This document shows, one piece after another, positions 28,401 to 63,495 of a DNA stretch of 64,000 nucleotides; the first letter of the stretch is position 1, and every line of letters begins with the position of its first letter. The DNA is from Bispira polyomma (lineage: Eukaryota), in NCBI GenBank assembly GCA_965649765.1, contig OZ287748.1, positions 34,782,001 to 34,846,000 on the forward strand. Direction: 5' to 3'. A program made the position numbers and the translations under genes. The notes under the pieces were generated by a model. The model had not been told where the DNA came from. It saw only the letters and a list, made by a program, of their open reading frames with translations, and did no database searches.

Positions 28401-31400
28401 CTATAGAAATTTAACAAAAAGCTCGATTCTTTATTTGTAAAACATGTATTACTCTTATTCAAATTAAATCGTCAATGTAAGGGACATTTAGCAAATCAGT
28501 AAACCCATTGCCCTCTTGATAATTGCTAAATATTACATTGATGACATTAGGTATGGATATCACAGCATACTTAGTGGAAGAAATATTCAATTTCATACTT
28601 ACAAAATTTAAATATGTAATTGAAATACAAAAATTGCTAGCTCAAATGTCAAAAGGCTAATTACTCTAGGGAAACTGCACATGTGAGGCAAAGATAAACA
28701 AGGGCCATGGCATTTTCCAGCATTTTAATGAGGCATTTTGAGTAAAGGTCATGCACAACAATTGTGCTGAATGTGTCAATAGAAAGTTATGTGTAGCAGA
28801 AGAATAATGTGTATAGAAACCTGCCATTAAAAATTGAAAAAAAAAACACACCCAAAGATGCAACTTACAAACTTTTACTTGTATAGCAAAGTACATTTGG
28901 TTTTTACATTCTATATGTGAAAAACCAAGTAATCTCACGAAAGAGAATCATTTCAATAGCAGATTGATGTTCTAATTTATTAGTCAAGGCACTTTAAGTC
29001 TTCTTCAAGTGCCTTACTATATGTAAGCTACTGTGGTAGGGTTTATACTTGTTTTGTATTCAATAATTTTACATTTATGTAGGCAGTATCTACAGTGTAC
29101 CTAGCCGCTTATGTAGCAGATTATAGTATTGTGCCTCATATGAAATTATAAATTAATGAGATTATTATATAACTAGAAGGCACTTAGTAGAATACATACC
29201 TCTGCAAAAGCGACACAGCGCTAACAAGTAAAGCAAAATAATTTTTGCACCACCCTTCCGACCGGATCCACTCCAAACATTTACTGGATTCTTCTTTCAT
29301 TCTCTTGCCCACCAAATTCAGTGGAAATCTGTTCAATAGGTTTTGTCTAATCATAAAATAGAGACGCATAATGTAGAATATTATCAAACTATAATGTGCC
29401 CATATAGATTCAATTTAAATACAGGCTATTTATCAATTTTAACACTAAATAATATGTTTGTTTGTTTTATTTATATTTTTCCTTATATCTAGATTGATAG
29501 ATTCAGAGACAATATAATTATGACCATACCACAATCTTTACTACATGTGCATTGTAGTTTTCCAAAAAACCTCCTGTTTAATTTGTTATAAAATAAATAA
29601 TGAAAATAATCTTGTTGCCCGTCTAAAATTGAGTAGTGACAAACACAAGCCAGAATATATGGCTTCCCTTGAAACATAATGTGATTCACTGTATGTCATT
29701 AGTGGTCAGTCTGAAAAAGGTTGAAGCCCTTGAGGAGATAAACTAATGGACATTTTTTTAGTCATGTTGGGGGAATGGACTAAGACTTTTTTACATTAAA
29801 ATATTTGGCAAGCTCCCGACTAAACCTACTAAAAAGACAATGCTTTTTGTTAGCTTTATTATGAGAGAGTGAAAAGGATTTTACAAAGTACAAAGAGAAT
29901 AATGAAGCTATTTATAGAAACTGTCATTTCAATTAGAATGGGCATTCTATTGTTGTTCACTTTTAGTTTATAAGTTTTGCTTCCCACGTATTGTGTTTAC
30001 ATGTCACCACATCAGTGAAAATATATTGCTAATTAGCTACACCTTTCACAAAAAGGTATATTTGTTGACTGTACAAGATACAGCTGTGGGTGAAAAAAAC
30101 ACGTATCCGCCTGGCATATGTTCTTTGTAAGTATTGTTCTCAAACAGTTTATCTATACTTATTAGACCATGGCATGATTGACTTTAGTGTTTTGTAGTAA
30201 TAGTACTTTTTTAGTTTCTTTTCAGTAAACCTTTAGTACATATAGTAATTCATATTCTCCCAAAAAAACTTCAAGGAAATATTTAGTGCACATCATTCAT
30301 TCTTTTTAGACCATTGGTTTAAATAGACCTTTCAAAGTTGAGCACAGAGACAAGGTTAAGTTTCCATATAGCTTTACTGTTAGCAGATATAGGCAAACTT
30401 TGAGTTGAGGTTGAGTCTGAGGTGAGTTTGAAAGTTTTCTGTAATGCAATGTCAGTAAACAGAAACTAAATGAAGCAGTGATGTTTTTAATGGTAAAAAA
30501 ATGACTTGATGGGAAGCTTTCTAATAAACCAGTGCTTCTTTTAACTGGGTCTGATCAATGCTGAGGTTAACTTAATTTACTTTCAGGCAGTTTTTAGTGA
30601 ACCGTATTTATCCGAATATACACCCTCAAAGCAGTGCATTGTGCAAAAGGAGGAACACATAAGGGAGGTCGAATCAGGTGGGCAATAATTAATGTTCAAT
30701 TGCATGTCAAATGAAATACAGAGCTTTCCCAGTCTAAATGTTAAATGATAAGTTCTAAAACTTAAGTTTCATTTACATAAATACGCCTTGGTATTTGGTG
30801 GTGATATATCCCATATATATTCCCATTCATTATCAAATTCTGTTTAAAATCTATGCCACACATTTTCAAAGCTGTTGTCTCTCCACATCCCTCTTACCTG
30901 GCCACCCCTCTTTCCTTTACTAACCTCAAAAGAAGAAAGAGACTGTTTCCTCTGTTAAACCCATCTAAGAGGGCTGGATCTTGAGATTTCTCTATTGCTG
31001 CCCCAATGTTTTGAAATAGTCTCCCAGTTAAGCTTAGATTACGAGACCTACTTTCTGGGTATAGGGCAAAACTTAAAACCCATATATTGAAACTTGCTTA
31101 TCCCCCATAGTTACTTACCCTGTACACACCCACAACCTTCCTTACGACTTAGCTATGTGTTTTGAACTTCACGATAGATTAATTGATTTGTTGTTGTGGT
31201 CTAATAAATTACGTAATGGTACTTAATCTCCGTACTAGTGGATTATAAGGGGCCACAACCAAAATCATTGTTTTGTAACTGTGTTATGCTAATAGTAGAA
31301 ATCTGTCTCATACAGTCTACAGACTACAGTGTCATCTAAAAATGCTACACATATTTCTAAACTTACAATTAAGGCAATCGTAAGACTGTTCGGAAAAATT

Positions 31401-32094
31401 AAGGTTAAGATTGGCTAGCCCATCTTAAGATAGGTTGCCAAATGTATCATCTTAAATTGGGCTATAGACCATCTTATGATTGGTAAAATGCTAAGTTGAG
31501 CTCAAAAATAATTACACAGAACACAAAAACAGTTCTGTCATTTAGCTTTTGGAAGCCCAGTGAATAAATGAACTTGAGTGTGGCTTTTCTGCACTACCTA
31601 ACTTCTGCAATTACAAATTCTAATTGGTACAGTAAAATGTATATAATACACCCTAAATAAAATGTCACATGTATTTGCTTAAATTATGAAGTTATGCTTA
31701 AAAAATCGCATAAATATAAAAATATATTCCTGTATAATTGTATTGCTATTACCAATACACATTCAATAGATACAGAACAAGTAGTGTTAGTAGATAACAT
31801 TATATCTCGGAATAAGTGTGCATTACATCAAATGAATGAATTTTTTTTTAACCAACATTAATTTCTTAAGTTACATTCTACATATCTAGTAAAATATATG
31901 TATCCACTTTTACACAAATCGACATGTGCTGACACTGTCATACGTCACCACATCATCATGATCCCTGTGTTTATGATGTCACCTCTCCGCTCCTCCCCTT
32001 TAAACCTTTGCCGGTAGTATAACAAGTGTTACTAATTACTTCAAATTTAATTAAAATCCATCCTGTGATCAAACCATAATACTTATTTTGCATA

Positions 32095-32550
32095 CATAAG
32101 TTTTCTTTGTAAGCACATTTTAGGAGTTTTACTGTAGTCACCACAAAGCCATAGTTGTTTGTTGATGTGACACAGATTTAAACAACTGGTCGGTAGTAAA
32201 CTCAATTTAGGCGGCCACAAAACCTCAGTGCATCTCATTTGTAGATTTCACGTTCAATGGCTTTTTATCAGGTGCAGCATGATATTGTTTTTACTCTAAA
32301 AATGACACAATCATGTTGGAAAGCACTGCCATGTTGGAAAAAAATACGTAACACCTTTATGACACTGGTTTCGAACACGTAAGTTTTATTTGTAAGCACA
32401 TTTTAGACGTTTTACTGTAGGCACCACATAGCTGTGGCTCTCTGTTGATGTGACATAGATATAAAAAGTGGTAGCAAGCAAACTCAATTTAGGCCAGGTC
32501 TTTAAACGTCAGTGCATCTCGTTAGTAGATTTCACGTTCAGTGGCTTTTG
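32095..32550. repeat. Internal tandem duplication (~283-bp period) within copy A
   Basis: taagtttt.tttgtaagcacattttag...gtcagtgcatctc/cctcagtgcatctc...tagatttcacgttca occurs twice; single copy at ~40100-40265. Confidence 0.8.
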
Positions 32551-34849
32551 TTTCTTTTATTCTCTTTTTCAGCTCCACAACAGGGTTTCTCTTTCCTCCC
32601 AATCAGCAGAGTGCTAAGATTTATCATATTCCTTTTAGTGATTCTTTAAAGTCCCATTAAAATAAAAGATGGCACAGCTATACTATCAATTACATACAAC
32701 AGAAGTCCTAAATTTCTACTTTGTTTCACTCTGTGTTGTGGGAATACCACTTAGAATGTGTTTTGACGCACTTGAAGGAGAAGGATTTGTAGCTTATGGT
32801 TGAAACTAAAACTCACAACAAACTGCCTTTAAATAAGTATTTTTATAAATCACTTCGTATCTGGTGTGATAATTTTAAGTATTTTCTTCTGAGGATACTG
32901 TTTTGGTATTGAGTTTTGTATTGGCTCACTAGAATAAATGCCCAGATAAAGTTCAAGCAATGTATTAACAAACATGGCAAGAAAACCATTCCTTGTAAAG
33001 TTCACTAGGTTTATATTTTAAAACACATCATAATTACCACCAAGCACATGGTCTGTTTTGTACCACTGCTGTAACATAACTATAGCATAAATCAATATGT
33101 AATGGTTCAGAAATGTCAAGATGTACTTTATCGTTGGGGTTATAACTTGTAGCAAGTCAGCGCCAGAGATATTTCGCTTATTTTTGTTAAAGCAGAAAAA
33201 AGCCAAGATAATCAGGCTATTTGTATACTGGGTATTGGGTTTTTGTGGGTTACAAAATCTAGGTTTTTGGATTCGTGACAAATAATGTTCATGTTTGCTT
33301 TCTTTGCAATGACTTGCTTGGCGTCTGTTGTTATTTCAACTTGTAACAATTGTGAAAGTACAAGCGTGACTGTGGGTAATTAAAGTAGGTGGTGGTGCTT
33401 AAATGCTGTTTATAAGTAAAGGAATTATTGCTAAAAAAAGGATTTTAAACCATCGTGGGTGATGTTTATTTATAAAAGCACATGCTGAATGACATATCCT
33501 AAAGAATAATGGTTAAAGTATCTTTTAAGTAACACGCATAATTTGTTTTTAAAGAGCAGGGTGATTCCTTCATATATATGACGTGTTAAGCTAAATGATG
33601 ACACAGAAGCAAAGAAGATTAATATCTTAATGAGTACCTATCTTCAATTTTACCAAATCTCCATGTAAATGAAAAACCCTAAATTATATATATGTTGATA
33701 TTACACACATTCGTGGAAATTGAACATAAAAAGTGATACATGACCAAATACCAATGTTTTATTATGTTAGCATTTAGGTGTTGTTGTGCTGGTGAAAGTT
33801 CTGTTTGTCAGTTTTGAGAGACAGACATTTTTTTTACACAGAAAATTACAGCAGAAAATTGTATTTATTGCTTTTGCAAATGGAAATGTAGCACTGAATT
33901 ATAGTTTTATCTTTAGCCTTGAGACTAACATCCTTGCTCTCTAGAGGTATACCACTTGTTATTTTACAGAACCACTAATTTTAATTACCATTTGTCAATT
34001 ATATTTAGCAAGTCCCTGCTCTCAGGCTCTGTAAAAAACACCTTGGTATTACTTAATCATAAACACCACACTGCAGCAAATGATATTACAATCCGTGATA
34101 GAAATATGTTTGCCGATCTCAAGTAAAGTCAAACACTGAACAGATGTTAGATAGATGTATTCTAGAAAAATTCTGCAACCCAAACATTCACAGGTTAACC
34201 CAAAATTATAGCTATGACGTAATATTTGCATCATATCTATCCATCATAGTATTAATAACATGAAAATTCACATTACTAAAAGTAGTTCCACATGCCTAAA
34301 GTATGCCACATATTTATTTGCTTTATAGTGAGCCTTAACCTAATAAAATGAGTGTGTTGGCAATGAATTTTCAGTAGTTCACCTCCTACAAGAATTCTAC
34401 TCTTTGTCCTATAGGGTCTACCAATATCTCCAGTTACAAATTTGTTTACAATCCAGCTACTGATAATAACACCCACATGAGGATGTGTGTGTATGTGACT
34501 AATGTGTAATGGGTTAATGATGTTGTTTACCTACCCCTAAAGTAAGTTTAAAACTTCGACTGGCGTAAACACACAGTACCTAAATACTTAAGACAAGACA
34601 AGAAAGACTTGACCAAAAATGTTGACCAAAACATTTCAGATGTTTTCTTCTGTATTACAAAGATCATAATATATGAACATCAAACTTCTTTGAAAGAAAT
34701 TAAAAGAAAATGTATTTAATCTTTGTTAGTCTATGTCAGTACATCTATTAACACCTAAGTCATTTAGGTAATTGCAGACATGACAACTGATAAATGGAAT
34801 TGGCCACACTCAAAACATGTTTTTCATGCCTTGCAGATACACCACAGAA

Positions 34850-36780: not shown

Positions 36781-39700
36781 TAAGTAAGTTTTTACTTCAG
36801 AGACCATCCCTGTAAGAGAATAGCTGTACTATCATTGCAGCTGAATTTGAATATAGGAAAATTTGGTGTAGATTGACTGTAACAGAATATCCAGTGAATA
36901 GTGTGAAATATATATTTTTTTTCTCACATTTTAGTATAAAAGCTATCTGTTGCTGTCGTACACTAGCTTATGATTTTAGTAAATGAACCAGAGATACCCA
37001 TGCTAGTGTAATCTACATTTATTTGTGTAATCTCAAACCTAGGTCCCACATTCATGACTCACAGATACAGTTAGCTGCTATACTTAAATAATGCTATACC
37101 TTGGCCATTCCTGGCTAAAACTGGGTCCCAACAAGAGTATATTGTGGCCATCATTCAGCAGTCATCAGGGCATTTGTAGTAATCTTTGATATTTGTGTCA
37201 TTGTTATTTTGGTCTTTCTGTACAGAATCATCACTAACTGTGTGTTTGTTTATTCTTGGTTAATTCTTGAATCTTGTTTGACACAGTTTTTTCCAAATCG
37301 CTTTTTAATTTGTATAAATGGCATTCTCGAAAAACCAAGAAATAATTCTTTTGCAAACCTACCCCTTCCATTCTTTTACAAATACACACGCATTAGCACA
37401 CTTGCAACATGTGTCCTGATTTCAACTGATGCTTAATACTTTCCTGTATGTAAAACAGTAGTATTGCTTTACTACTTTACCCTATATAATGTGTGACTCA
37501 AATACAACAATTGCTTAAATATTAAAGGACAATTACTTAAGTGAAACTGCACATATATGGCAAATATAGACAAGGGTCATGACATTGTAATGAGGCATTT
37601 TGAATAAAGGTTTTACACAGCAATTGTGTTGAATGTGTTAATAGAAATTTGTTTAGCACCTGAATATTGTGTATAGAAAAATGGCATTAAAAATTAAAAA
37701 AAGAAAGATGCAATTTACAAATTTTTATTTGTATAGCAAAATACATTTGGTATTTACATTTTACATGTGAAGAACCAATCAATCTCACGGAAGAGATGTT
37801 TTTCAATGGCAGAATTATGTTCTAATTCATTAGTCAAGGCACTTCAAGCCTTGCTTAGTGCTATACTATATAAAGCTACTGTGGCAAGCCTTTTACTTGT
37901 GTTCATTAAATATAATTACAGTTATGTTAGCAGTATTTACAGTCTACCCAGCCATTTATATAACACATTATAGTACTGTGCTTCATATGACACTAGCCAT
38001 AAGGTTAATATGTGACGAAAAGTCACTCAATTGACTACATACCTTTGCCAAGACGGCACAAAAACTAAACCAATAAATCCTTTTAATTTATTTCTTATAA
38101 GAGAAAATATATCAAGTATAAATACATGAATGTTTTTTTTTTTTTCAAGTACAAAGAGAATAATGCAGCTATTAAGAGGAAGTGCAATGTAAATCAGAAT
38201 GGATATTATATTGTAACACTTTTAGATTATAATTTTCACCATCCACATATTGCCTTAACATGTCATCACACCAGGGAGGCTATGTTGCTAACTAATCACC
38301 CCTTTTGCAATACGATATATTTGTTGACTGTCTAAGATACAGCTGTGGCTAAACATATGTGTCAACCTGACATACATGCAAGTATTGTTCTCAAACAATT
38401 TATCTATTAAACCATAGCATCATCAAATTTAGCTTTTTGTAGTAATACAATTTTTTCCTAGCTTCTATCCAGTAAACCTTTATTACATGGCTACATACTC
38501 AATAATCTTACAAAAAACTATATTCTATCAGCATTGTAGACATCTGTAATTCTTTTTAGACCATTGGTTTAAATAGACCTTTCAAAGTTAAACAGAGAGA
38601 TAAGGTTAAATTTTCATATAGCTTTACTGTTAGCGGATGTATGCAAACATAATTTGAGATTGAGTCTGGGGTGAGTTTGAATGTTTTCTAAGATGCAGTG
38701 TCAGAAAACAGAAACCCGTAAATGAATGAAGCAGAGAAATTGTGAACGGTAGAACAATACTTAATGGGAAGCTTTCCAATGAACCAGTGTTTTTTTTTTT
38801 TTTTGTTTTTTTTTTGCTTCTTTACCAGGGCCTGACTTAAGGTTAACTTAAGTGACTTACAGGCAGTTTTTGGTGTGACATATTTATCCAAATATACACC
38901 CTCAAAGCAATCTATTGCTCAAAAGGAGGAACAAATATTGGAGGTCGATTTAGGTCGGCAATAATTAATGTTTAATTGCATCTCAAATGAAATATACTGT
39001 AACATCACCTACGCTATCTAAATACTCGTATTAAAGGATAAGTGCCATAACTCAGGTTTTGTTTGTATATATATATATTCCCATTCATTATTGAATTCTG
39101 TTAAAACACATGTCACACATTTTATAAGCTCTTGTCTCTCAACAGTCTCCCCTACCTTCCCACTCGTTTTTTTTTAGACTGCCAAACGTAGGTTCTTAAA
39201 TTGGACTATAGCCTATTTTAGATTGGCTAAATCGTAAGTTGAGCTCCAACATAAACACACAGACGACGAAAAGAGGTCTGTGATAATGGTATTTAGCTTT
39301 TGGAAGCCTAGTAAATGAAATTTTGTCATTTTTATAATACGTATGAACTTGAGTATGGCTTTCATGCACAACCTGATTTTTGCAATCACAAATTGGTACA
39401 GGAAAATGTACATAATACACCGTAAATAAAATGTCAGGTGTATTTGTTCAAATATATGTCAGTATGCAATAAATTATAATTTTCTGAATATGAACACATA
39501 ACTCGTTTTTATCAGACTAAAAAATATCAAAAGCCAGTGGAATTGTAATAAGGTTGTCTATATTTCTAGATTTATTGAAGCCAATCAATATGTTCTATCA
39601 ATTTACAGTTTAGCATCATGTATATACGTACTAAATTTAACTTTCAATTGATTTAGAATTTCTGAAAAGCCATATAATGAAGTTGTGCTTGTAAAATCAA

Positions 39701-40013
39701 ATAAACATATATACATGTACACAATATATTGCTATATTATTATATTGCTATTGTCAAGAGGCATACAGAGCAAATATTAATATAATTAACAAAATTAATA
39801 ATAGGAAAAAGTGTTTAATGGGTGTTGGGCGTTGTAGGGCAGCATTCTTTGGTATTGATGGAAGCCTTAGGCTCTGAACAAAAAAAAATAATTTATTCAA
39901 CATTTATATCTATAAAAATATATGCATTTACAAGAATCTTCATCTTTGACATCTGCGGACACTATCATAAGTCACCACACTATTATTATGCCTGTGTTTA
40001 TGACATCACCCCT

Positions 40014-40044
<31 letters not shown>

Positions 40045-42845
40045 AAAACATGTATAATCTATATTATGATCAAACAATAAATACTTACTTTCCACCCGTG
40101 TAAGTTTCATGTGTAAACACATTTTAGGAGTTCACGCATTTAAGCTCTGGCTCTCTGTTGATGTGACATAGATATAAACAAGTGGTAGGAAGTAAACTCA
40201 ATTTTGGCCAAGTTTGTAACGTCAGTGCACCTCATTAGTAGATTTCACATTGAATTGCTTTTATCAGGTTCAGCCTGATATTGTTTTCATTCTGACAAGG
40301 GTGCGGTCATGTTGGAAAGCGCCGCCATGTTGGAAAAATTATATAACGCCATCATGGCTTGGTTGAAAGAGATTGGCCTGACCAAACTGAGGGATGTCAC
40401 ATTAATTTTTCCACACTGTGCACCTGTGTCTTTTTTAAAAGACAAATCTTGTTTCTCTTATATTCTCTTTTAGTGTTTTTTAGCCCCCAACAGGGTTTCT
40501 CGTCCTCCCAATCAGTGGAGTACTGAGATTTACCATATTCCTTTTAGTGATTTTCGGAAGTCCCATCAAAATATATGATAGGATAGCTGTACTATCGATT
40601 ACACACTAGAGAAGTCTTAAATGCCTACTTTGTTTCGCTCTGTGTCAAGGGAATACCACTTATAATGTGTATTGACACACTTGACGCCAACGACTTGTAG
40701 CTTATGGTTGAAACTAAAATTCACAACAAACTGCCTTTAAATATGTATTTCTATAGAACACTTTGTATCTGGTGTGATGCATTTTAACACGCTAATTTCA
40801 GAGTTCACCAAGTTTATATTTCAAAACACACCATAGTTACCCACAGACGCATGTTCTGTTTTGTACCACTCTGGTAACATAACTATAGAATAAATCAACA
40901 TGTAATGGTTTATAAATGTCAAGGCTTCTTGCTAGTAGAGGTACTTTATTGTAAGGGTTATAACTTGTGGCAATTGAGCCCCCGAGAAATTTTACTTCTT
41001 TTCTGTCAAAGCTGAAAAAAGCTAGATAATCAGGCTATTTGTATACTGAGAGTATTGGGTTTTTGTGGGTTACAAAAACTAATTTTATGGATTTGTAACA
41101 AATAATGTTGATTTTTGTTTTTTTCTGTTGTTTGTATCAGTATGACTGTTGTAAATTAGAGTAGGTGGTGCTAAAATACTGCTTAAGTGGAGGATATTAC
41201 GTCTCAGAAAAAGAATTTTAAACCATGGCGCGTGATGTATATTTAAAAAGCAGATGCTTAAAGAGATTTTTAGCTGCCCAGGCCTCTGATTATATTATTA
41301 CACAAGTAAACAACTGTGATTGAAATGGCCAGTTTATTAAGCTGACAAGATTAACACCAGTTGTATGTACATGTACAATTAAAAGATATTTCAAGTATAC
41401 ACAATATATATACATAAATACAAAAGCAAAGGAAGGGTTTCTTTGTGTAAAGCAAAAACTTGTATTTGTTGCTTTTTCAAATGGAAATGTAGCACTTAGT
41501 TATGGTTTTGTCTCTCGCCTTCAGACTAATAACCGTGTTCTCTTGACATTATTTCACCAAACTGCTCATTTTAATTAACGTTTGTAAAGTATATTTGGCA
41601 ACTGCCTGCTCTCAGGTTCTGTGAAAAAATTTGCCATTTGCCATATCATATGCACTGTACTACAGCAAATAATATTGCAGTCTGTGGCAGTAATATGTTT
41701 GCCGATGTCAAATTAAGTCAAACACTGAGCAGATGTTGGATAGATATATTCTAGAGATATTCCATGAACCAAACATCCACAGGTTAAGCCAAAATTATGA
41801 CTGTGACATTTTATTTGCATCATATGAATCAATCATAGTATTATTAACATGGAAATTCACTATACTAAAAAGTAGTTCTATTTGTCTAAACTATGCCACA
41901 TATTTGTTTGCTTTATAGTGAGCCTTAACCTAATAAAACGACTATGTTGGCAATGTATCTTCAGTAGTTCACCTCCTACAGGAATTCTACCTATTGTCCT
42001 ATAGGGTCTACCAATATCTCCAGTTATAAATTTGTTTACAATCGAGCTAATGATAATAACATCCACACGAGGATGCGTGTGTGTATGTGACTAATGTGCA
42101 ATCCAATGGTAAATGATGTTGTGTACTCACCCCCACCCTAAAATTAAGTCAGACTGACATAAACATACAAGTAACTAAATATTCAAAGCAAGAAAATAAT
42201 TACTTTTTTCAAAGATATTGCTTTAAAAAGTTAAGATTTTATCTTCTCTTTTTTTTTAATGTAACAGGATGTCACCTTCAAATTCAAACTTTTTTNNNNN
42301 NNNNNNNNNNNNNNNNNNNNNNNNNNNNNNNNNNNNNNNNNNNNNNNNNNNNNNNNNNNNNNNNNNNNNNNNNNNNNNNNNNNNNNNNNNNNNNNNNNNN
42401 NNNNNNNNNNNNNNNNNNNNNNNNNNNNNNNNNNNNNNGTGAGTACATCCATTAACACCCACATCGTTCGGGCAATTGCAGGCAACTCCAGAAATAGGAT
42501 TAGACACAGCCAAAGAATGCTCCTCATGCCTTGCAGGTACACAGTTTGCGACAAAAGCTAAGCACAGCATTTGCAGCCTTGGAAGAACACAGGGCAGAAC
42601 GTGGTAACCGTGTGTGTGATTATAAAAAGTAATAGTCTTGCTCAAGGCTCATTAATTGAACGATATTTACTTCTAACAATAATAAAATAATATACTAAGG
42701 GTTGTTGAGGGTATCAGGTGTATAATTTGTAGGTTACAAGATATTACAGGGCTTGATTGGGGACGTTATGTGTCCATAAGTCTATACAAACACATATCCT
42801 TTATAGGTTTATTTGTATGAGATTAGGGGTATGCCCACAATGCTA
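36781..42845. repeat. Old tandem segmental duplication, copy B (shorter, contains the gap)
   Basis: Colinear with 27380-36030, with many indels. Confidence 0.9.
42296..42438. other. Assembly gap (143 N)
   Basis: Run of n. Confidence 1.
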
Positions 42846-44163: not shown

Positions 44164-44681
44164 TGTTTGAAGTTAACAGCTCTTTTAAAGCACACCCAAG
44201 TTAATGACTAGCAGTGTATTAGAGATTAAAATCTGTGCTGTATTAAAAAGTGCCAAGGATACTGTTGAATTGATTTTGTCACAGAAATGTTTGTTTACTT
44301 TTAATGGCTCACAAGGACCTGATGCTTTTTATTCAAGGATTATCGAAAGTGTGTGGGCCTGTGTGGTGGATTGAAATAAAATAGACATAGAGTTTTTTTT
44401 GCCTGAAGTGTCATAAGTGGCATGAGTGGCAGCAAATATATTTATTGATGAAGTTTTGGACTGACATTGTTAATATACACATATACACTTCATGTATATT
44501 TAAACATATTTGTGTTTTTTTCACATATAACAGTGGATAACAGTTTACTCGCTCTATATATGAAAGTTTGTGTTATGTATTAAAAGTGAGTTGAAATATA
44601 TATTTTTTTAATTTCTACTTTTTCATATTCCTTTAAATCTCACAAATACTGGATATATAGTTTAAAGGATAAACTATCAAG

Positions 44682-46019
44682 ATGGCTTCATCTACACGAC
44701 AAATCAAGGCCAAGCCATCCCTCCACAAAATGGATGTTCAAGCACCTGGGGTAAACATCATTGAAGAGTTTCAAATGGAGGAATTCCCACCTTTTAACAT
44801 GTCAGAGGAGACATATTTCAACCAGAGCAGTAGTGATATATTTGCATTCCCAAATGAAGAACCGACTCACTTTGGTGTGTTTGTGGAGATCTTGTCTCAG
44901 TATGGGATACCACTGATCATTGCTATAGGTTGCATTGGCAACACCCTAAGTTTCTCTGTATTTGTCGGCTCGCATCTGAAGTTCCAATCGTCCAGCGTTT
45001 ATCTGGCATTCCTCAACGTGGTGGACACCTTATTTCTTTTGATCCTCTTTATAGGCTGGCTGTATAAAGTAAACATAAACCTAGTAAACCGGCAGGTGCT
45101 GTGTCAAACAGTCATCTATATCAGTAATGTTGGGGGATTTTTGTCCGTATACACTGTAGTCAGTTTTACCATTGAACGATGGATCGTCGTATTCCATCCA
45201 TTGAAGAAAAACTTCTGGTGCACGCGGCGTACTGCCTTCTTAACGGTATTGGTGCTGATGCTTTCAGCTATGGTAATGTATTCCTTCACTCTATGGTCCA
45301 CCGGGCTGGTTGACATTGCTGGAACACAGTTTTGCTTACCAAAGCCCCAGTTTTACAGAACTGTCCAAATATTAACCACAATAGACACTATAGTCACCTT
45401 ACTGTTGCCATCTGTGATTATCATTGTGCTCAATGTGAACATTGCCACAAAGATATGGCAGTTCATCCACAAGGAGAGTGAGAGAAATGAGCTGTTTATC
45501 ATGTACCCTTCATTGGACCAACATCTGTCCAAGAGTTCATTCTATTTTGATAAACACTGTACCAATGAATTGAGTGGCAGTATTGTCAAGAAGAATTCAC
45601 GAATGCCTAGTACCGTCAGCTATTACGCCACACGTATTCAAGAACAGACAGGAAGTAAGAGATCCCAACAAACATACGGCAAACGTCGGCTGCGAGCGCA
45701 TATTCGCACCACCCGGTCTTTGTTGATTGTTTCCACTGTCTTTGTGTGCCTCAATTTGCCCAGCCACGCATTTCGCATTTACGCAGTGGTCACTGAGTTA
45801 ATGGACCCTGGATATAGGTACCCTAAAACAGGATTACAATTCCAGCAGATATTTCAACTCGTGTATTACATCAACTTTTCTGCTAACTTCTTCTTGTACT
45901 CTGCGTGTTCAAAAACATTCCGACATGCATTTAAACGACTTTGTCAAAAAATCAAGAGAAAACTGGCATCAGGTGGAACCAAGATGTTATTGTACTGTAG
46001 GCTTTCAGATCTTGTGTAA
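44682..46019 (+). CDS. Single-exon class A (rhodopsin-like) GPCR, FMRFamide/sex-peptide/TRH-receptor-like peptide receptor group
   Basis: 445 aa with 7 hydrophobic segments; TM1 GxxGN, TM2 YLAFLNVVD, Cys before TM3, ERW (DRY variant), ECL2 Cys, TM6 FVCLNLP, TM7 NFSANFFLY, N-terminal NxS sequons. Ligand not assignable. Confidence 0.93.
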   Translation: MASSTRQIKAKPSLHKMDVQAPGVNIIEEFQMEEFPPFNMSEETYFNQSSSDIFAFPNEEPTHFGVFVEILSQYGIPLIIAIGCIGNTLSFSVFVGSHLKFQSSSVYLAFLNVVDTLFLLILFIGWLYKVNINLVNRQVLCQTVIYISNVGGFLSVYTVVSFTIERWIVVFHPLKKNFWCTRRTAFLTVLVLMLSAMVMYSFTLWSTGLVDIAGTQFCLPKPQFYRTVQILTTIDTIVTLLLPSVIIIVLNVNIATKIWQFIHKESERNELFIMYPSLDQHLSKSSFYFDKHCTNELSGSIVKKNSRMPSTVSYYATRIQEQTGSKRSQQTYGKRRLRAHIRTTRSLLIVSTVFVCLNLPSHAFRIYAVVTELMDPGYRYPKTGLQFQQIFQLVYYINFSANFFLYSACSKTFRHAFKRLCQKIKRKLASGGTKMLLYCRLSDLV

Positions 46020-47032: not shown

Positions 47033-47294
47033 GGGGCCATGGTGGCCTAGTGGCTAGCAAGCTTTGCGCTTCACAGTGACTGGTCTCTCACCTTTAGGAT
47101 CGGCTGGCGTGGGTTCGACTCCTGTTGATACCTATGTGGGAAAGGTGGTAGTTCCTCACTGTGGGCCGCTGGTTTCAGTGCAGAACCTTGATCAACTGCA
47201 TGCAGTGTTTCCTCCAGCGTTTCCAGCTACCTGTCCTAATATAACCTAAACAGGTACTAGAGTGGATGTTAAATGTCCTAATTGAAAAAAAAAA
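47033..47294 (+). mobile_element. tRNA-derived SINE, same family as 1857-2119
   Basis: GGGGCCATGGTGGCCTAGTGG A box, GGTTCGACTCC B box, poly(A) 47285-47294, possible TSD atatacat at 47024-47031 and 47299-47306. Confidence 0.9.
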
Positions 47295-47673: not shown

Positions 47674-49081
47674 AGTTTTCTGCCCATAGAAATCAACAAA
47701 TGTAACTAATTAGAAATTATACTTGGCTAAAACATCCTACATGAGCAATACCTGTATTGACCAGTCAGAATCATTGTGTTATTTTCTGCGTGACTATGTG
47801 TCAACTGCCCTACTGAAATATATTATGTGCTAGACATCAACCACACAAAAACATGTGGAGTTGGTGATGATAAAATAACTAACTATATATTACTGTCCCT
47901 GTGAAAAATAGTCTTAATTGCGTCAGTCTCTAACTAAGAAGAGTTATCTGACCAATTTTGTGAGTTTGATCTATGTACCATAATTATAAGTATGCTTTAT
48001 GCACATATGTTCAAATAACAAAGACATAAGCAAAAACTAACACAATGTAAACTACATGTAAGGTATCCTCAGACTGTGTACATTTATGGAGTGATATATC
48101 ACATTGATATATATATTTAGTTAGCTATCTATCTTTAGCTGATCATTGATCTTCAGCCTGGGTAGAATGTGTAAATATATCTGCAGCAGGAATGGGAGAC
48201 AACTGGAACTAGAACTATGATGCTAACATTGCAGTTGTAGCATAGTAGCAAACTAGGTCAACTGTTCATAAGTTTACAAGTCCTATGAGTCAATCCTAAC
48301 ATCTGTTACTTTAATGCACTATCCGGTTGACACTCTGTTAAATGCTAAAGTGTAATACGTTGTATAGATACCCCTTGGGAAATGGCTCACAGAATGTGCA
48401 TTCATTCGTGTTTATCGTTTTCCCCCCTTAAAATAAACCATATATGTAGCAGTTAACCAACACTGTGATATATTTGTGTCACATGCTCCATTAGCACTGT
48501 AATAACAATAGTGATGTGGCAAAAAAGGCAACCATCATAAATAGCATCAAAAGGTGACAAAATTTTTTTGGCATTGTACTAATATAACTTCTATTAATGT
48601 TAATCTTTTTATTTATTTCAGTATTGCCACAATCGATGACCAGGCATCTTCTGTAATCGCACATCCTAATGTATTTTCATCGCTTCTGTTCTCCAAATGT
48701 TCAATTTAGTGAACTCTTCAGAAGTTTGAATCTCACATTGTCGATACTAAATAGGTATATATGCTTGCACATTTTACAGTTAAAAAATATATATATTCGG
48801 ATAAAACAGGTCACACTGTCTTTATTATTGTTATGACGGCAAAGGAAACAACATATAGCACTTAGTGGTTAAGTGATATATTTGACAAAACACCAAAAAG
48901 TGGTATTTTGGGTTGAAAAATTCAGACTTTTATCAAAAACAGTGAATCCACTTTTATATGAATGTAAGTCATGTCGGGTACATTTTATATATGTCAAAGG
49001 TATAATATTGATTTGAATTGAACAATAAAATACCATTAAACAAACTCAACAATATTTTTGGAACATAGCAGCCTGAAATAG

Positions 49082-49322
49082 CCTGAAATATGGTTCATTA
49101 ATACCATGGTCCTGAAATATGGTTTATTAATACCATGGTCCTTAAATATGGTTCATTAATACCATGGTCCTAAAATATGGTTTATTAATACCATGGTCCT
49201 TAAATATGGTTCATTAATACCATGGTCCTTAAATATGGTTCATTGATACCATGGTCCTGAAATATGGTTTATTAATACCATGGTCCTTAAATATGGTTCA
49301 TTAATACCATGGTCCTGAAATA
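49082..49322. repeat. 29-bp minisatellite, ~8.3 copies (cctgaaatatggttcattaataccatggt)
   Basis: Head-to-tail units with no spacers. Confidence 0.97.
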
Positions 49323-49543
49323 AAAAACTGTTCTACTTTGACCTATTTTCTGCCAGTTAGCAAAGGCAAACAACCTCCACCAATATAAACAAAAAACTTA
49401 TAAAAAACAAGACCCCCATTACCCTGTCAGATAGCTGACGGGAGAAACTTAGCCAAGAGAGGTGATTGCTTGGTAGTGAGATGTGTTTTTATGACGTTGT
49501 ACTTTTTGTGTGTGAAATTGGGAAACTGACCTTTTTAGGGAGA

Positions 49544-56080: not shown

Positions 56081-56324
56081 TGGTAGGTGGTTGCTTGCAC
56101 CACAGTTCAGTAGAAACTAAAGTTTAAATAGACTTGGCCTTTCTATTTATTTGGCCTGTTAATGTGGGCTATATGCAACACCTTGCAAGTTGTCTAGAGG
56201 TGACCTTGGCTGGGTCTACATGCACATGTTCACATATTTGGTCCCCTCACTGGGGTTCAAATTAGCCAATTCAGAGGGTCTATATCAAAAGCATGTAGGG
56301 GTAGTCAGTATTAAACTTGCAGTC
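56081..56324 (+). repeat. E4 terminal repeat A1 (putative promoter)
   Basis: 4 differences from A2/A3 by eye; TATA-like tatatcaaaa at 56281 and initiator-like TCAGT at 56305, the latter also present in the E2 A repeat (~18957). Confidence 0.9.
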
Positions 56325-56436
56325 TTGTCAACTGATTTGGCTTTAAATTTTAAATATATCAAGTAACAGAATTTTTCATTTAATATTGGACAAGCCAGGT
56401 TTTGCTGGGAGAGGTGCCGTGGTGTACTATTTTAGA

Positions 56437-57435
56437 ATGGCCAGTGTGTACTGCAAGACGTGTGATCTGAAGGGCAACAATTCAAGACATCCTAGACGTG
56501 TTGGTAGAAACTGTGTACTCAACAAAACCATGCCAGGGGGTTCAGCTGACGAGTCTTTCGCTGGGAACAGCCACGTGGAAGAAGTTGTACATACAGGAAC
56601 TTGTGATCCTTTTAAAGTAATCATGGACAAACTACAGTCGCTTGAGGACAATAATAGACGATTAGAACAAAAATTGGATAATAAAATTGCTGAACAGTCT
56701 ATTGCTAGTGGAATTTCGCATAGTTCTCCAAAGAAATCCCACAACTGCTCGGATCAGTGTAGTGTTAAGGCCAGACGGGCGACAGCTCAAATAGACAAGT
56801 CAGTTGACTTCTTAGATAGTGTCATCCCGAGTCTACAGTACTTGAAAGACAATAAAACGCTACAGGATCAAGTGCAGCAGCAACTCAGACATTTGCAAGG
56901 GCTGGAAAGAGATTCAGGTAAATTTAAGTCTGGCTTATTACGAGTTGGCGAGTGTAAAAAGAAAAAACACATATTATGGCCACACGAGTTATGTTATTCG
57001 GGTGCTAGTGGGAAAAACCCTACGTACGAAGAATTATCTCCTTTTCAATTCATGTTTGGGTTCTTGGCTACTATTCAAGAAGAAAAGAATTCCCAAAGTA
57101 AGGAAAATATGATTGAATATATGCGCCTGCTAATGCAGGATGCATTAGAAACTAATTGGGTGATGGTCAAGCGGGCCCACAGTGTTCTATTACAGAGTAT
57201 GGAAAGAGGCACGTGCTCTTGGAAAGATTTTGCCGATATTGATAAAATTCGCATGCGCTGTACGCAAAGAACTATGGCAGTTCAGGCCACAAACACAGGT
57301 GCCAAAAATAAAACCTCCAAGAAAATGGTTATTTGTGCCGGTTATAACAACAATACTTGTTCTTTTGGAGCCGATCATGTGGAAAACAATGAAATCCACA
57401 AACATGCGTGTACCAATTGTTACCAAGTTACCTAA
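56437..57435 (+). CDS. gag: E4 gag-like ORF1 (likely ATG at 56437; premature TAA at 57433 inside the C-terminal zinc knuckle)
   Basis: N-terminal CxxC..H..C, coiled coil, HILWPHELCY core, CTNCYQVT*KFYNHRAFEC; homologous to E2 gag. Confidence 0.85.
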   Translation: MASVYCKTCDLKGNNSRHPRRVGRNCVLNKTMPGGSADESFAGNSHVEEVVHTGTCDPFKVIMDKLQSLEDNNRRLEQKLDNKIAEQSIASGISHSSPKKSHNCSDQCSVKARRATAQIDKSVDFLDSVIPSLQYLKDNKTLQDQVQQQLRHLQGLERDSGKFKSGLLRVGECKKKKHILWPHELCYSGASGKNPTYEELSPFQFMFGFLATIQEEKNSQSKENMIEYMRLLMQDALETNWVMVKRAHSVLLQSMERGTCSWKDFADIDKIRMRCTQRTMAVQATNTGAKNKTSKKMVICAGYNNNTCSFGADHVENNEIHKHACTNCYQVT

Positions 57436-57461
57436 AAGTTCTATAACCATAGAGCTTTTGA

Positions 57462-60078
57462 ATGCAACCGGGGTTCAAAAAATGGGGACAGGGCACAAGT
57501 GCAACGTATATAAAAACTGACACATTTTACCCACATGTAATTAATAGCACTCTGTATAGACAAGTAAACACTGTAGGTGGTAAAAATATAAATTGTAAAC
57601 TAGTCAATAAGTTTTGTGCTAAAACAGATAGAGAATATATTGGCTTTAGTAGTTCTACATGTAATAACATTGTTGATAATCTAGAACAGAGTGGTACTTT
57701 GGGTAGTTGTGCACACAATCCATCCTCAAATGGTAGTAGCATGATTAAGCGTCTTGCATACACGTGTAAAGACAAAGATATGATATCAAATAACTGGCTT
57801 AAAATCAGTGTTACTGAAATAAGTGATCTTAGTTCTTTTAATGATAATATTTTATCATCTGAATGGCTACATAGTTTATATACTTCACACACTAATGATT
57901 TTAACTGTGATAGTTACAATCATAGCCCTCGAGCTACAAGTGCCTCTCAAGGTCACAGTATTGATCATACATGTACACAATCTATGTATGAAAATGAACT
58001 CATTCATTTTAATAATGCTCAGCAGATTTTGCAACATTCAATGGCAATCACGAATTTGCTAGTGCTTGGAGCTCACATTCACACATGTAGTTCAAACTAT
58101 AATACAACTGATTACAGTTGGAAAAGTATTTTAACAAATCATTCTAGGCACAACATGGGGTTTCTTGATTTTACCACACTTGGTATCATATCAAGTAAAT
58201 GTGTACTTGCACCAACTGATGTTTTACAAACATATGAACATGCTCAAGATACTGAGCAATGCAATAGACACTATACATGTAATGACAAATCTGATGATTA
58301 TACTGATGATGATTCCCCAGTAAAAAGTACTTTTAATGCGATAACATTTTTAGACTGCACAAAAACAGTTGGATATATGGCTACACCATTACATAAATGC
58401 ATAGATCACAACTTGATTAATCACTTAAATTGTGGAAATTTATATGATTGGGTGGGAACTGCGCATAGGTTGGTCACGGCAACAAATGTACACAATTACA
58501 TGTCAGCCAGAATTCCAGTTCATTCAGATCTCAATATTAAAAACTGGTACACTGTCATGAAGAATCATCCAGACAGTATTATACTACAGTATCTTCAATT
58601 TGGATTCCCAGTTGATATAGATAGGGAGATTTTTAGACATAATGATATACAAAGCAATCATCCATCTGCTCAAGCATATCCCCTTGACGTTGCAAAATAT
58701 TTTGAAAAAGAAATGGCACATAAAGCCATAATGGGTCCTTGTACCACACTTCCAATTAGCAAAATGCATTTTTCTCCCCTTTTATCTAGGCCTAAGTCAC
58801 AGTCTTCTAAACGTATAATTGTTGACCTAAGTTGGCCTCTTGGTCAATCTGTTAATGATGCCATCCCTTGTCATAGTATTGATGGGCAGGATTATAGGCT
58901 TAAGTACCCCACATATTTTGGAACTTATTAGCAATATTGGACCGGAAGCAAGACTCTTCAAAATTGACGTCAGCAGGGCCTTCAGAAACTTAAAATTAGA
59001 CCCTGCCACATATGATGTCATGGGTTTACAATTTGATCAGCATTCATACATAGATTTAAGCCTCCCTTTCGGCCTTAAAACCAGAAGTGCTCTGTACCAG
59101 CGCATCACGGACGTCCTGCATGACATCATGGCGTCGCGTGACGTCAGCGTCATAAATTATATAGATGACGTAATTGGCGTCCAGACATCATGTGACGCAT
59201 TGCGTGCGTTTAATATGCCAAAGGATCTCTTCAAATATGTTGGTCTACCAATAAACCCCGATAAATTGGAGCCTCCATCCCAAGTTTTAATCTGCATGGG
59301 CATTGAGGTTAACATTAAGACAGGAATTATTTCCATTCCCCAGGATAAGTTGTCGGATATCAAAAATACGTGTAAAATTTGGATTAATCACAAGTGGGCC
59401 TCAAAATGTAGTCTTCAAAGTTTATTGGGATGCCTTCTCTATATTCACAGATGCATTCAACCAGCAAGGCTCTTTGTAAACAGAATGCTGCAAACTCTTT
59501 GCCTTGCAAAAAATCATAGTAGAGTTAACTTGACTCCCTCATTTTTCAAGGACCTGGCTTGGTTCAATTGTTTTCTGGATCCATTTAATGGCAAGATGGT
59601 CATTGGTAACTTTAAGTCCCACTATGAAGCTTATGTGGACGCTTCGTTGACTGGTGCTGTAGCCATCTACAATGATCAGGTGTATGCTGTCACATTTCCT
59701 GCTAATAGTGTTAATTGTTTAACAATAGTACATTTAGAGATTTTAAATGTCTTGATATCAGTTCGAGTTTGGGCAGAGCAATGGTCACACAAAAGAGTAA
59801 CCATCTGGTGTGACAATGCTGCTGTAGTTTGTGCTTTGCAGTCTGGGCGCATGCAGGATGAGTATCTCATGTCCTGTGCTAGAACTATATGGCTGTTATC
59901 TGCCAAGTATGACATAAGGTTCACATTCTCTCATGTGAGGGGTTGTCTTAATAAATATGCTGATTGTCTTTCTCGATGGTATACTGGCAAAGCTGATTGC
60001 AGATTGATGCAGGAACTTTCGGGTCTTACTTGGTGTCACATACCAAATTCCTATTTTTTCCCAAATTGCAGTATATGA
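57462..60078 (+). pseudogene. pol: E4 pol: long N-terminal extension plus RT and RNase H, one frameshift near 58910
   Basis: NHPSA, FSPLLSRPK, RIIVDLSWP..SVND in 57462-58931; KIDVSRAFR, LPFG, NYIDD, YVDAS, WCDN, NKYADCLSR in 58840-60078. Confidence 0.93.
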
Positions 60079-61055
60079 TTTCTGTTGTAGGTCCTACAAT
60101 TACTGATGCGTTGCTGAAACAAGCCCATGCAAGAATACATCTTTCACTTAGGCCCAGAACATCCGTCCTTTATGAAACAAGGTTTAAACTTTATTTAGCC
60201 TTTGCCAAGTACCTGGCTCTAGACTTTAAAGCGCTAGATTCCGTCCTCATATTTCTGGAGTATTTAGTTCTGCAAGATTATAGGGCTTCCTTCTTACAAA
60301 ATTTCTTAGGGGTCCTAAGACATTTCTTCAAACTGTATGATCTCAAATCTGACATATTGTATCACAGGAAGTTACATTTATTTGTCAAGTCAGTAGATGT
60401 CAATAGTGCCTACAAACCGAAATTGAAAGGAATTTTTTCAACAGAGAATACACAGCAAATAGTACAAGAATGTGACATTATTCCAAATGGTTTTGTGTAT
60501 AAAGCGCTTTTCCTTTTGGCGTATTATGGATTTTTCAGGTTGTCCAATCTAGTTGCCAACTCACAAAATGGGTTTGACATAACAAGACATTTTTCTGTAG
60601 CAAATATATTATGGGCACCTCCTGGTGCTCATGTTGTCATGAAGTGGCACAAGGCCATGCAAAGTTCCTCTTCACACCAGATTGTACAAATCCCTTTCTT
60701 GTTGGGTAATGCAGCGTGTCCAGTTACAGCCCTCAAAGTCATGATAGTAAAGCACAAATTACAAGGAGACATGCCTTTGTTTGGAATATATAAACATGGT
60801 ATCAGATATCCACTTACTGCATTTAAAGTTCATCAAGTGTTGTCTTCTATAGTTGGTAAACTAGGGCTTGACACGCAAGCCTTTACGTTTCATACGTTTC
60901 GCAGATCTGGTGCAACCTTCGCGTTCAACCACAATATCGATTTACAAAAAGTAAAAATTCATGGAGGTTGGAAGAGTGATAGTGTTTGGCACTATTTACA
61001 ACCTTCAACAATAGCTGCCAGTACTGTTGCAAAAACTTTTAAACTACATATGTAA
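59997..61055 (+). CDS. E4 tyrosine recombinase, intact frame; true start uncertain (ATG 60075 or splice acceptor 60090)
   Basis: FFRLSN, KWHK, HTFRRSGAT, HGGW, VWHY: complete catalytic set. Confidence 0.93.
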   Translation: MQIDAGTFGSYLVSHTKFLFFPKLQYMISVVGPTITDALLKQAHARIHLSLRPRTSVLYETRFKLYLAFAKYLALDFKALDSVLIFLEYLVLQDYRASFLQNFLGVLRHFFKLYDLKSDILYHRKLHLFVKSVDVNSAYKPKLKGIFSTENTQQIVQECDIIPNGFVYKALFLLAYYGFFRLSNLVANSQNGFDITRHFSVANILWAPPGAHVVMKWHKAMQSSSSHQIVQIPFLLGNAACPVTALKVMIVKHKLQGDMPLFGIYKHGIRYPLTAFKVHQVLSSIVGKLGLDTQAFTFHTFRRSGATFAFNHNIDLQKVKIHGGWKSDSVWHYLQPSTIAASTVAKTFKLHM

Positions 61056-61073
61056 ACAACTAATTTGGCATTT

Positions 61074-63495
61074 GGGACATATTGTAAATATTTTAAAGAC
61101 ATACTAATACGGTAGACTAACCCATGTAGTGCTAGATAGAAATTATTAAAAAGAGATAATAATAAATTTCCCAAACTGTTATAATTATGTTGTGTATTTT
61201 GATTTTATTGTGTTAAATGTAATGTTAAATTATTGGTCACCAACTATATCTCAATAGTGACAAAAGCAAAAAACTGCATTAGTTATCAATCCACCAGTTG
61301 GTCCATGCTGCATATCTGGTTAAACTTGGTTATCAATCCAACAGTTGGTCCATGTTGCATTTTTGACTAAACTTTGGCTGTAGACTGTGGTAGGTGGTTG
61401 CTTGCACCACGGTTCAGTAGAAACTAAAGTTTAAATAGACTTGGCCTTTCTATTTGTTTGGTCTGTTAATGTGGGCTATATGCAACACCTTGCAAGTTGT
61501 CTAGAGGTGACCTTGGCTGGGTCTACATGCACATGTTCACATATTTGGTCACCTCACTGGGGTTCAAATTAGCCAATTCAGAGGGTCTATATCAAAAGCA
61601 TGTAGGGGTAGTCAGTATTAAACTTGCAGTCAGACAGCAAGCATCTTTTTCCCACCCACCACACCCAAATTTTGTGTTTTTATATTTTATTATATAGTAT
61701 ACTTAATACTTGTTTTTGTATTCCGAGGTTGTATTGATATCAAATCTGGAGTTGGGACAGCAGAGGCGTCTAAATATTTCACTCCTGTATGGCTGCATCA
61801 GGAAGGAATTGTATCTCCTGAAGCTATTATAGCAGAATGGAATTATCATTTCTGGACTTTGATAATCAGAAGAATTTCACTTTGCATTGTGCAGGAAGGA
61901 ATTACTGCTCCTGTCATGATTTATCAGGATGGAATCACTATACCTGTTGCTATAGTCAGGATGACGCCTTTGCATTAGCACTACATGAGGACTGTGTGGT
62001 TATATATATGACACTTGTGCCTGGACTTCGCTGTGTTTAAAGATGATCTCAGGACCATGGACTTATTTTAGTATCAAGATGTAGCATCTATGTTTTAGTC
62101 ATTTAAACAAATTTAGTGCGACATGAAGGGACATATTGTAAATATTTTAAAGACATACTAATACGGTAGACTAACCCATGTAGTGCTAGATTGAAATTAT
62201 TAAAAAGAGATAATAATAAATTTCCCAAACTGTTATAATTATGTTGTGTATTTTGATTTTATTGTGTTAAATGTAATGTTAAATTATTGGTCACCAACTA
62301 TATCTCAATAGTGACAAAAGCAAAAAACTGCATTAGTTATCAATCCACCAGTTGGTCCATGCTGCATATCTGGTTAAACTTGGTTATCAATCCAACAGTT
62401 GGTCCATGTTGCATTTTTGACTAAACTTTGGCTGTAGACTGTGGTAGGTGGTTGCTTGCACCACGGTTCAGTAGAAACTAAAGTTTAAATAGACTTGGCC
62501 TTTCTATTTGTTTGGTCTGTTAATGTGGGCTATATGCAACACCTTGCAAGTTGTCTAGAGGTGACCTTGGCTGGGTCTACATGCACATGTTCACATATTT
62601 GGTCACCTCACTGGGGTTCAAATTAGCCAATTCAGAGGGTCTATATCAAAAGCATGTAGGGGTAGTCAGTATTAAACTTGCAGTCAGACAGCAAGCATCT
62701 TTTTCCCACCCACCACACCCAAATTTTGTGTTTTTATATTTTATTATATAGTATACTTAATACTTGTTTTTGTATTCCGAGGTTGTATTGATATCAAATC
62801 TGGAGTTGGGACAGCAGAGGCGTCTAAATATTTCACTCCTGTATGGCTGCATCAGGAAGGAATTGTATCTCCTGAAGCTATTATAGCAGAATGGAATTAT
62901 CATTTCTGGACTTTGATAATCAGAAGAATTTCACTTTGCATTGTGCAGGAAGGAATTACTGCTCCTGTCATGATTTATCAGGATGGAATCACTATACTTG
63001 TTGCTATAGTCAGGATGACGCCTTTGCATTAGCACTACATGAGGACTGTGTGGTTATATATATGACACTTGTGCCTGGACTTCGCTGTGTTTAAAGATGA
63101 TCTCAGGACCATGGACTTATTTTAGTATCAAGATGTAGCATCTATGTTTTAGTCATTTAAACAAATTTAGTGCGACATGAAGGGACATATTGTAAATATT
63201 TTAAAGACATACTAATACGGTAGACTAACCCATGTAGTGCTAGATTGAAATTATTAAAAAGAGATAATAATAAATTTCCCAAACTGTTATAATTATGTTG
63301 TGTATTTTGATTTTATTGTGTTAAATGTAATGTTAAATTATTGGTCACCAACTATATCTCAATAGTGACAAAAGCAAAAAACTGCATTAGTTATCAATCC
63401 ACCAGTTGGTCCATGCTGCATATCTGGTTAAACTTGGTTATCAATCCAACAGTTGGTCCATGTTGCATTTTTGACTAAACTTTGGCTGTAGACTG
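61074..63495 (+). repeat. E4 right end: 1054-bp B-A-C unit repeated ~2.3 times
   Basis: Near-identical copies at period 1054; each B carries AATAAA (61161-61166) and an internal ~47-bp dimer (gttatcaatcca.cagttggtccatg.tgcat). Confidence 0.96.
61760..61973 (+). ncRNA. Putative structured RNA domain in E4 spacer C (second copy 62814-63027)
   Basis: Closing helix gcagaggcgtc/gacgcctttgc enclosing five CAG...(G)GAAT...(C/T)TG hairpins with a compensatory change. Transcription not shown. Confidence 0.55.

Follow-up and report, generated by a model that had tools for sequence, protein, structure and literature searches.

Background and comparison with described systems

The packaging signals (psi) of retroviruses and Ty1 consist of purine-rich motifs carried on stem-loops in the 5' leader, which is the usual place for psi, and HIV-1 has a poly(A) hairpin. 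Ngaro elements, which belong to the DIRS order, are given the layout A1-[ORFs]-B1A2B2 in the sections cited (PMC8547959, PMC9210276, PMC4157794, PMC3783388). How the RNA of DIRS-order elements is chosen and primed is an open question (PMC7192593). Two RNA systems outside this order are also relevant here. The cited parts of the literature describe about 18 repeats in CsrB of Escherichia coli, with CAGGA located in loops or single strands (PMC7652899), and a control of polyadenylation in foamy viruses by U1 binding together with structure (PMC3694450).

The window analysed here is the whole 64,000-nt stretch of Bispira polyomma DNA. A tyrosine-recombinase (YR) retrotransposon spans positions 56081-63495 of the window and carries an array of short repeat units in its 3' tail. 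The direct repeats were found in the order A1-ORFs-B1-A2-C1-B2-A3-C2-B3, with features as follows (all on the + strand).

56081-56324, +: repeat A1, whose 3' end is 19 nt shorter than in sister copies
56437-57435, +: Gag-like ORF with Cys/His clusters at each end; no Pfam family, taken as Gag from its position
57462-60078, +: RT/RNase H region in two overlapping frames (57462-58931 and 58831-60078); RVT_1 5.7e-10, RVT_3 1.2e-4, no methyltransferase match
59997-61055, +: tyrosine recombinase ORF (Phage_integrase 4.4e-9)
61071-61077, +: TTTGGGA, complementary to TCCCAAA at 61169-61175; full length in the B1 context only
61074-61387, +: repeat B1, AATAAA at 61161-61166
61388-61650, +: repeat A2, TATA-like word at 61588-61597 and initiator-like TCAGT at 61612-61616; putative promoter
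61651-62127, +: spacer C1, 477 nt, between A2 and B2
61651-61666, +: four C-tracts exactly on the A2/C boundary; minus-strand G-quadruplex motif or RNA poly(C)-type site
61714-61729, +: cross-family motif TTTTGTATT..GAG|GT, splice-site-like
61760-61973, +: the array, an 11-bp helix P1 (61760-61770/61963-61973) around six cores with TCCTG/CAGGA arms
61771-61787, +: sixth core (unit 0), GGAATT-type in older copies, with the TCCTG arm only
62128-62441, +: repeat B2, AATAAA at 62215-62220
62442-63495, +: tandem extra unit A3-C2-B3, with a second array copy at 62814-63027

The element is of the Ngaro type as judged by its ORF domains and split-repeat layout rather than by phylogeny against named references; structure by itself may mislead in classifying such elements, as the cited part of one study notes (PMC4157794). 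RT/RNase H and tyrosine recombinase ORFs are both present, the direct repeats are split as A1-ORFs-B1-A2-B2 with the inner repeats 3' of YR, and spacer C separates A2 from B2. No Dam/MT methyltransferase domain, the discriminator of DIRS/PAT elements, was matched at E <= 0.1 in the five ORFs scanned. The Gag-like ORF and solo derivatives add to the likeness. The element differs in that a modular spacer of several hundred nucleotides parts A2 and B2, whereas B1, A2 and B2 are adjacent and no cis RNA element is mentioned in the cited descriptions, and in the tandem A-C-B unit that the window copy adds. The open literature, mostly titles and the openings of abstracts, gave no account of a Ngaro A2-B2 spacer or its RNA elements, nor of a 3'-end cis signal in a YR retrotransposon; the originals of Goodwin and Poulter may draw the spacer.

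The element and its surroundings

In four sister copies the homology of A1 stops at the position that corresponds to 61650, and spacer C is therefore placed at 61651-62127. A B-A-C unit of 1054 bp is doubled in the window, with two differences between the copies, one in B (61138/62192) and one in C (61944 C against 62998 T); the latter had been reported in the initial annotation and is indeed the sole one within C. The tandem unit (window 61074-63495) was also observed in L090, and L047 bears a further A after B2. The RT/RNase H frame is broken in the window copy. A donor-like AG|GTA lies in gag (window 56913-56923) and is present in the seven lineages covered there by the gag alignment. A T-rich YAG|G acceptor is found at the start of YR (window 60085-60094) in 10/10 lineages and its phase matches the gag donor in the window; splicing probably yields YR in the form of a Gag-YR fusion.

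Elsewhere in the window, further pieces of YR retrotransposons occur at 9-896, 19427-22691 and 24752-25276, and the one ending at 22691 has the ORF-B form without A2-C-B2. A LINE-like reverse transcriptase fragment (6412-7659, + strand) and a 448-aa stop-free frame resembling a rhodopsin-type G-protein-coupled receptor (44673-46019, + strand) were recognised by eye. The segments 28839-34497 and 37689-42087 form an old duplication of about 5 kb with blocks 77-91% identical, and 49024-49371 is a 29-bp minisatellite. A dispersed short repeat (1908-2119 and 47033-47250) has a similar copy that interrupts C in L106 and L168.

Repeat units of the array

Five hairpin units had been proposed at 61799-61820, 61833-61854, 61867-61884, 61892-61913 and 61925-61946, and all five are present in the sequence. 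The count of cores is six: an extra one without a 5' arm is located at 61771-61787, and the last CAGGA (61957) is without a 3' arm. Older copies (for example L131 and L142) have more uniform units and reveal this sixth core. The array is best written as P1-[core-TCCTG-linker-CAGGA]n-P1', where n was observed to be 2 (L111, L113 and L114), 3 (L109), 5 (L091) or 6 (window) cores, all enclosed by the retained outer helix. A search of the 1.035-Gb genome with the unit pattern CAGGAWGGAATT-N4-6-YYCCTG gave 28 matches, as opposed to none for the reversed control, and 24 of the 28 are 22-nt units within copies of this spacer. The pattern is not due to chance and is specific to this spacer. Four 24-nt matches (L124, L128, L135 and L143) were located outside spacers and were dropped.

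Cores within a copy are 61-83% alike and linkers 23-55% (four copies, arm offsets set by hand). TRF reported no array, the linkers being too diverged, and ARAGORN gave no match. Different subfamilies have inherited unit periods of 33, 34, 30, 26 and 25 nt. Together with a 1-nt indel just after GAG|GT these periods shift the frames between subfamilies, which argues against the idea of a small coding exon in C that evolves fast and encodes an 11-residue repeat. That idea draws on a 118-codon stop-free frame at 61622-61978, on pN/pS of 0.24-0.36 against two older copies, on shared variants (9 synonymous, 10 non-synonymous and no stop, p 0.036) and on a depletion of stop triplets (p < 0.05) in 7/15 sequences. 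There is no ATG 5' of the array and no Pfam match, however, and neither three other families nor sister pairs reproduced the signal (about 50 tests), so that we regard an exon as the least probable of the readings considered here.

Predicted fold and covariation

The initial annotation had described a multibranch RNA in which three nested helices close the five hairpins. The three helices are formally complementary (61760-61770/61963-61973, 61783-61787/61957-61961 and 61788-61793/61949-61954); the outer one, P1, is predicted with pair probabilities of 0.98-1.0 and the inner two reach only about 0.2. Hairpins 1-5 have predicted probabilities of 0.27, 0.01, 0.00, 0.95 and 0.94 respectively, and the five-hairpin fold is not the predicted one, since it costs -62.3 kcal/mol when forced against -69.3 kcal/mol for the free fold. 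Stability relative to shuffled sequences depends on the bounds: z = -4.16 was obtained with bounds cut at the helix ends, but six other bounds gave -1.3 to -2.2, and bounds set by the upstream motif gave -2.1 to -2.5. The minus strand has z = -3.13, and one of 35 coding windows of 214 nt attains -2.95.

Covariation of the stems is genuine in single cases but does not rise above controls (two double changes, a level reached by 161 of 500 shuffles; five against 3.5 expected, p 0.23), and in unit 2 an A-C mismatch persists in 6/14 copies. Because the arms alternate, two registers each use all of them. The hairpin register originally proposed has 93.5% paired cells and two double changes over 14 copies. 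The second register, TCCTG-linker-CAGGA, has 91.5% paired cells and one change inherited by three copies; its score, with 0/500 shuffles as high, rests on this one change. For the distinct units from 21 loci neither register beats permutation (p 0.23 for the first, p 0.84 for the second), and among ten copies the energy is lower for the first register in seven and for the other in two, with one tie. Neither register is preferred, the second fitting equally well. P1 is paired in 97% of cells with one G-C/A-U double change and shows no cognate specificity over seven divergent copies (cognate against permuted, p 0.33).

A likeness to CsrB had also been suggested. Both have repeated GGA words, and four exact CAGGA(U/A)G heptamers are found in the array (61799, 61892, 61925 and 61957). 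Here, however, CAGGA is a predicted paired stem arm in both registers, only the second GGA of the core would be open, and a eukaryotic transposon carries six cores against about 18 repeats. The Rfam scan returned four matches at E 0.54-3.7, all far below the gathering scores and none of them CsrB. We consider the likeness a coincidence of sequence and do not count the array as a CsrB member, as its CAGGA is paired and there is no Rfam match.

Changes of the G-U type are only slightly favoured (15 against 9). This and the long-lived tolerance of the A-C mismatch would suit a reading in which the units are DNA binding sites that form an enhancer for the A promoters, as would the inverted half-sites with their fixed 12-bp spacer; the unit words presumably resemble ETS-, GATA-, NF-kB- or CRE-like sites. 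A strong bias of GGA over TCC on one strand and the long-range double change in P1 are difficult to reconcile with DNA sites, and the GATA-like word has been lost from most young units. We therefore give this reading only a slight chance.

The array might also be a near-neutral minisatellite, a palindromic unit expanded by slippage, with the functional parts of the spacer elsewhere. The period of about 33 nt, the variable unit number, the lack of significant covariation, the modest z with unbiased bounds (-2.1 to -2.5) and the absence of the array as such from other families would all agree with this. Against it, cores and arms stay alike while the linkers diverge beyond detection by TRF, changes between young and older subfamilies affect 0-1 of 22 sites in P1 and 3-5 of 60 in the arms against 6-10 of 63 in the linkers, and the core word recurs singly in sister families. 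A minisatellite origin of this kind is thus quite improbable. We conclude that the repeat array is real and selected and lies within a conserved modular spacer, with its structure partly supported and its function inferred; selection is clearer on the sequence than on the structure.

Spacer C across copies and families

All comparisons were drawn from one genome. The best 150 of 10,984 candidates from the YR search were scored and 40 of these were fetched at 9.6 kb. A B1/B2 pair was found in 18/40, with no detectable pair in the other 22, and the spacer precedes B2 in 18/18. It also lies between A2 and B2 in 3/3 other family copies that have YR-B-A, two of which form a local inverted pair. C is therefore not absent from intact copies, being found in every copy with an intact 3' end, and its presence in all 18 paired elements and all three family copies is what a psi would require. 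Twenty further stretches added lineages, of which f10 and f11 were retrieved by means of the motif and so give no independent evidence on it; as the lineages are related, counts of lineages are not independent either.

The order of landmarks is constant: a TATA-like word with TCAGT, the end of A with the C-tracts, a T-rich stretch with the motif, a variable domain, and B2. The TATA-like word and TCAGT are located about 40-50 nt before the end of A. The C-tracts begin within 1 nt of the end of A1/A2 homology in 13/13 other elements from six families, with only five other minus-strand matches there. At its end, the T-rich stretch carries TTTTGTATT..GAG|G or a near variant in all 11 lineages found through YR, GTRA or GCAA comes next in most lineages, and a CTAAC-like word precedes the motif in old copies. 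A spliced-leader RNA was considered for this region and rejected, as TCAGT and GAG|GT are spaced differently in different families and inspection by eye with the Sm-site consensus revealed no Sm-like site downstream.

The array itself is confined to this clade, unlike the spacer. CTGGA (31 against 5.9 expected, in 9/12) and TGGAA (26 against 5.6, in 11/12) occur about fivefold more often than in dinucleotide shuffles across the 12 other lineages. The excess of YWGGA is significant singly in seven of these and not in five, and GGA exceeds TCC on the + strand in 10/12. The pattern GGAAT-N1-5-CA[CG]T, which was chosen post hoc, occurs once each in 4/12 (null mean 0.22, none on the reverse strand). 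A fold z below -2 was found in only 1/12 other lineages, and the 22-nt profile matched no other family significantly (best p 0.05). Since GGA words are enriched while folds and profile are not common to the other families, the hairpin array can be viewed as this clade's expanded form of a motif-rich domain. Judged from these alignments, related families share the spacer layout (C-tracts, motif and plus-strand GGA-rich domain) and not the hairpins.

The YR proteins of families with these landmarks are only 45-55% identical. Related proteins in other organisms gave nine matches at E <= 1e-30 in one search and 79 at E <= 1e-30 in another, and a metagenome scan for relatives confirmed 0/52 candidates. 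Some rearranged copies were also noticed. In L082 (about 600-1170), A1 continues into C for about 260 nt before it meets the gag leader, a junction of the kind that a deletion in a circular or tandem intermediate would leave, and L195 and L198 (G000 C3:99349229 and C9:57701078) are fragments whose ends fall inside the C-tract or at its end; in one of them part of B precedes A.

The presence of a TATA-like word and TCAGT in every A, and of AATAAA in B2, would permit A2 to drive a separate RNA of about 630 nt (the end of A, C and the start of B2) acting as a decoy, a scaffold or a non-autonomous unit. In keeping with this, 13 copies contain most of C, and six of them are A-C(-B) units in which host DNA adjoins the 5' end of A. 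Recombination between A1 and A2 yields the same solo form, however, and its reciprocal ORF-B form exists (L025; window 19427-22691); solo AB repeats are mentioned in the cited part of an earlier description (PMC8547959). A short RNA would also be without the B-A junction. We think it very improbable that such an RNA accounts for the array.

Poly(A) signals, possible read-through and possible repeat exchange

The TTTGGG word bordering B1 is the complement of a CCCAAA located immediately after AATAAA, the two being about 80 to 520 nt apart. The B1 flank pairs behind AATAAA better than the B2 flank in 9/10 lineages, and in 7/10 its pairing is stronger than that of at least 96% of background windows. 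The pairing has no cognate specificity (p 0.36) and is clearly predicted by local folding in just 4/8 lineages. A helix that is specific to B1 and adjoins the poly(A) signal suggests read-through past B1, and C would then lie on the replication-competent RNA. C would necessarily be copied, because a template from which both ends of the element can be rebuilt must contain the B-A junction together with B2, as the repeat order implies. It would not mark the long RNA alone, because an A2 promoter would also yield short RNA containing C. Contigs spanning the entire element came from three unlabelled sequencing runs and carry no information on expression.

In family 2, minor alleles 5' of AATAAA are common to B1 and B2 of one element (three sites, five cases, 10 elements). 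In family 4, differences between B1 and B2 and between A1 and A2 are common to several elements, contrary to homogenisation; the family-4 copies are probably DNA duplicates because two of them share flanks.

This arrangement resembles that of foamy viruses and HIV-1, as far as the cited portion of the foamy-virus work goes (PMC3694450), in that the poly(A) signal occurs in two identical copies, the structure depends on context and a donor-like site is close by. It differs in placing both signals at the element's 3' end, where about 1 kb and a promoter repeat separate them. The identical signals of B1 and B2 require outside control, and host RNA-processing proteins of the SR/hnRNP type might bind the array and, with the GAG|GT motif, choose between them. 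SR proteins bind GGA words. The foamy-virus precedent, the GTRA/GCAA and CTAAC-like context of the motif and the fact that the element appears spliced (a YR acceptor in 10/10 lineages) also speak for host factors. On the other hand, the YR acceptors are all YAG, and the motif in C is GAG or AAG and never YAG; no copy joined at the motif site was observed among 20 matches, and P1 and the C-tract boundary would be left unexplained. Control by host factors is thus unlikely, albeit the strongest alternative to the reading given below.

Proposed role of the array

The initial annotation inferred a multivalent protein-binding RNA. This remains the best reading, given the kept cores and arms, the variable unit number, the GGA words on the + strand and the occurrence of C in intact copies; the fixed five-hairpin architecture, significant covariation and hairpins across families are not supported. 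We tentatively propose, aware that it could well prove wrong, that the array is a multivalent cis signal on the read-through RNA which recruits the element's own Gag/RT complex and marks the full-length RNA. Transcription would start about 40 nt before the end of A1. The helix that is fully formed only at B1 would allow some of the RNA to continue beyond the first poly(A) signal and terminate in B2, and this long RNA alone would combine C with the B-A junction needed for both ends. A signal in C would therefore pick the replication-competent template. P1 may close a loosely folded domain in which interchangeable CAGGA/UCCUG arms leave the GGAAUU cores exposed, and the avidity of two to six sites may outweigh any single exact fold. 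More speculatively, the C-tracts could mark where DNA synthesis starts or stops and so fix the end of A.

The position of C, the layout, the variable unit number and the plus-strand motif bias count in favour of a Gag/RT signal. Hairpin and P1 covariation not above controls, and other families folding no better than shuffles, count against it. Such a signal would resemble retroviral and Ty1 psi in that stem-loops carry a number of short purine-rich motifs and the element has a Cys/His Gag, and would likewise select genomic RNA; it differs in that the array is at the 3' end and not in the 5' leader, the repeat number varies and no tRNA primer site adjoins. The 5' leader has a recurring helix of its own in three families, which also weighs against the proposal. 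Just 3' of A1, L058, L061 and L083 have a recurring branched 5'-leader fold containing a helix with C-G/U-A exchange between families; the window copy is without part of the 5' arm of this helix. The predicted leader fold is a candidate psi and thus a competing site for a psi-like signal.

A further and rather doubtful possibility, a little less probable to us than host factors, is that Ngaro elements have a permuted LTR in B1-A2 and use C as their module for initiating reverse transcription, with the array docking Gag/RT. Minus-strand synthesis would start without a tRNA at the C-tract on the A2/C border, A2 and B1 would be copied as a strong-stop product, and synthesis would halt at the TTTGGG border of B1 and jump to B2. 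This would explain both exact repeat borders, the homogenisation of B1 and B2 to the 5' edge, the tandem (B-A-C)n tails and the two fragments that end in the C-tract. No common site for a self-primer complementary to the start of C, or for a partner of the conserved motif, was found in the seven elements searched. If the permuted-LTR arrangement is true, it supplies the missing priming site of split-repeat YR retrotransposons.

As regards the Gag/RT signal that we tentatively favour, binding of Gag or RT by the array would make it a 3'-end cis signal in a YR retrotransposon. The spacer offers exact, testable landmarks common to these families, namely the C-tract at the A border, the near-invariant motif, the helix specific to B1 and the repeat domain of variable number.
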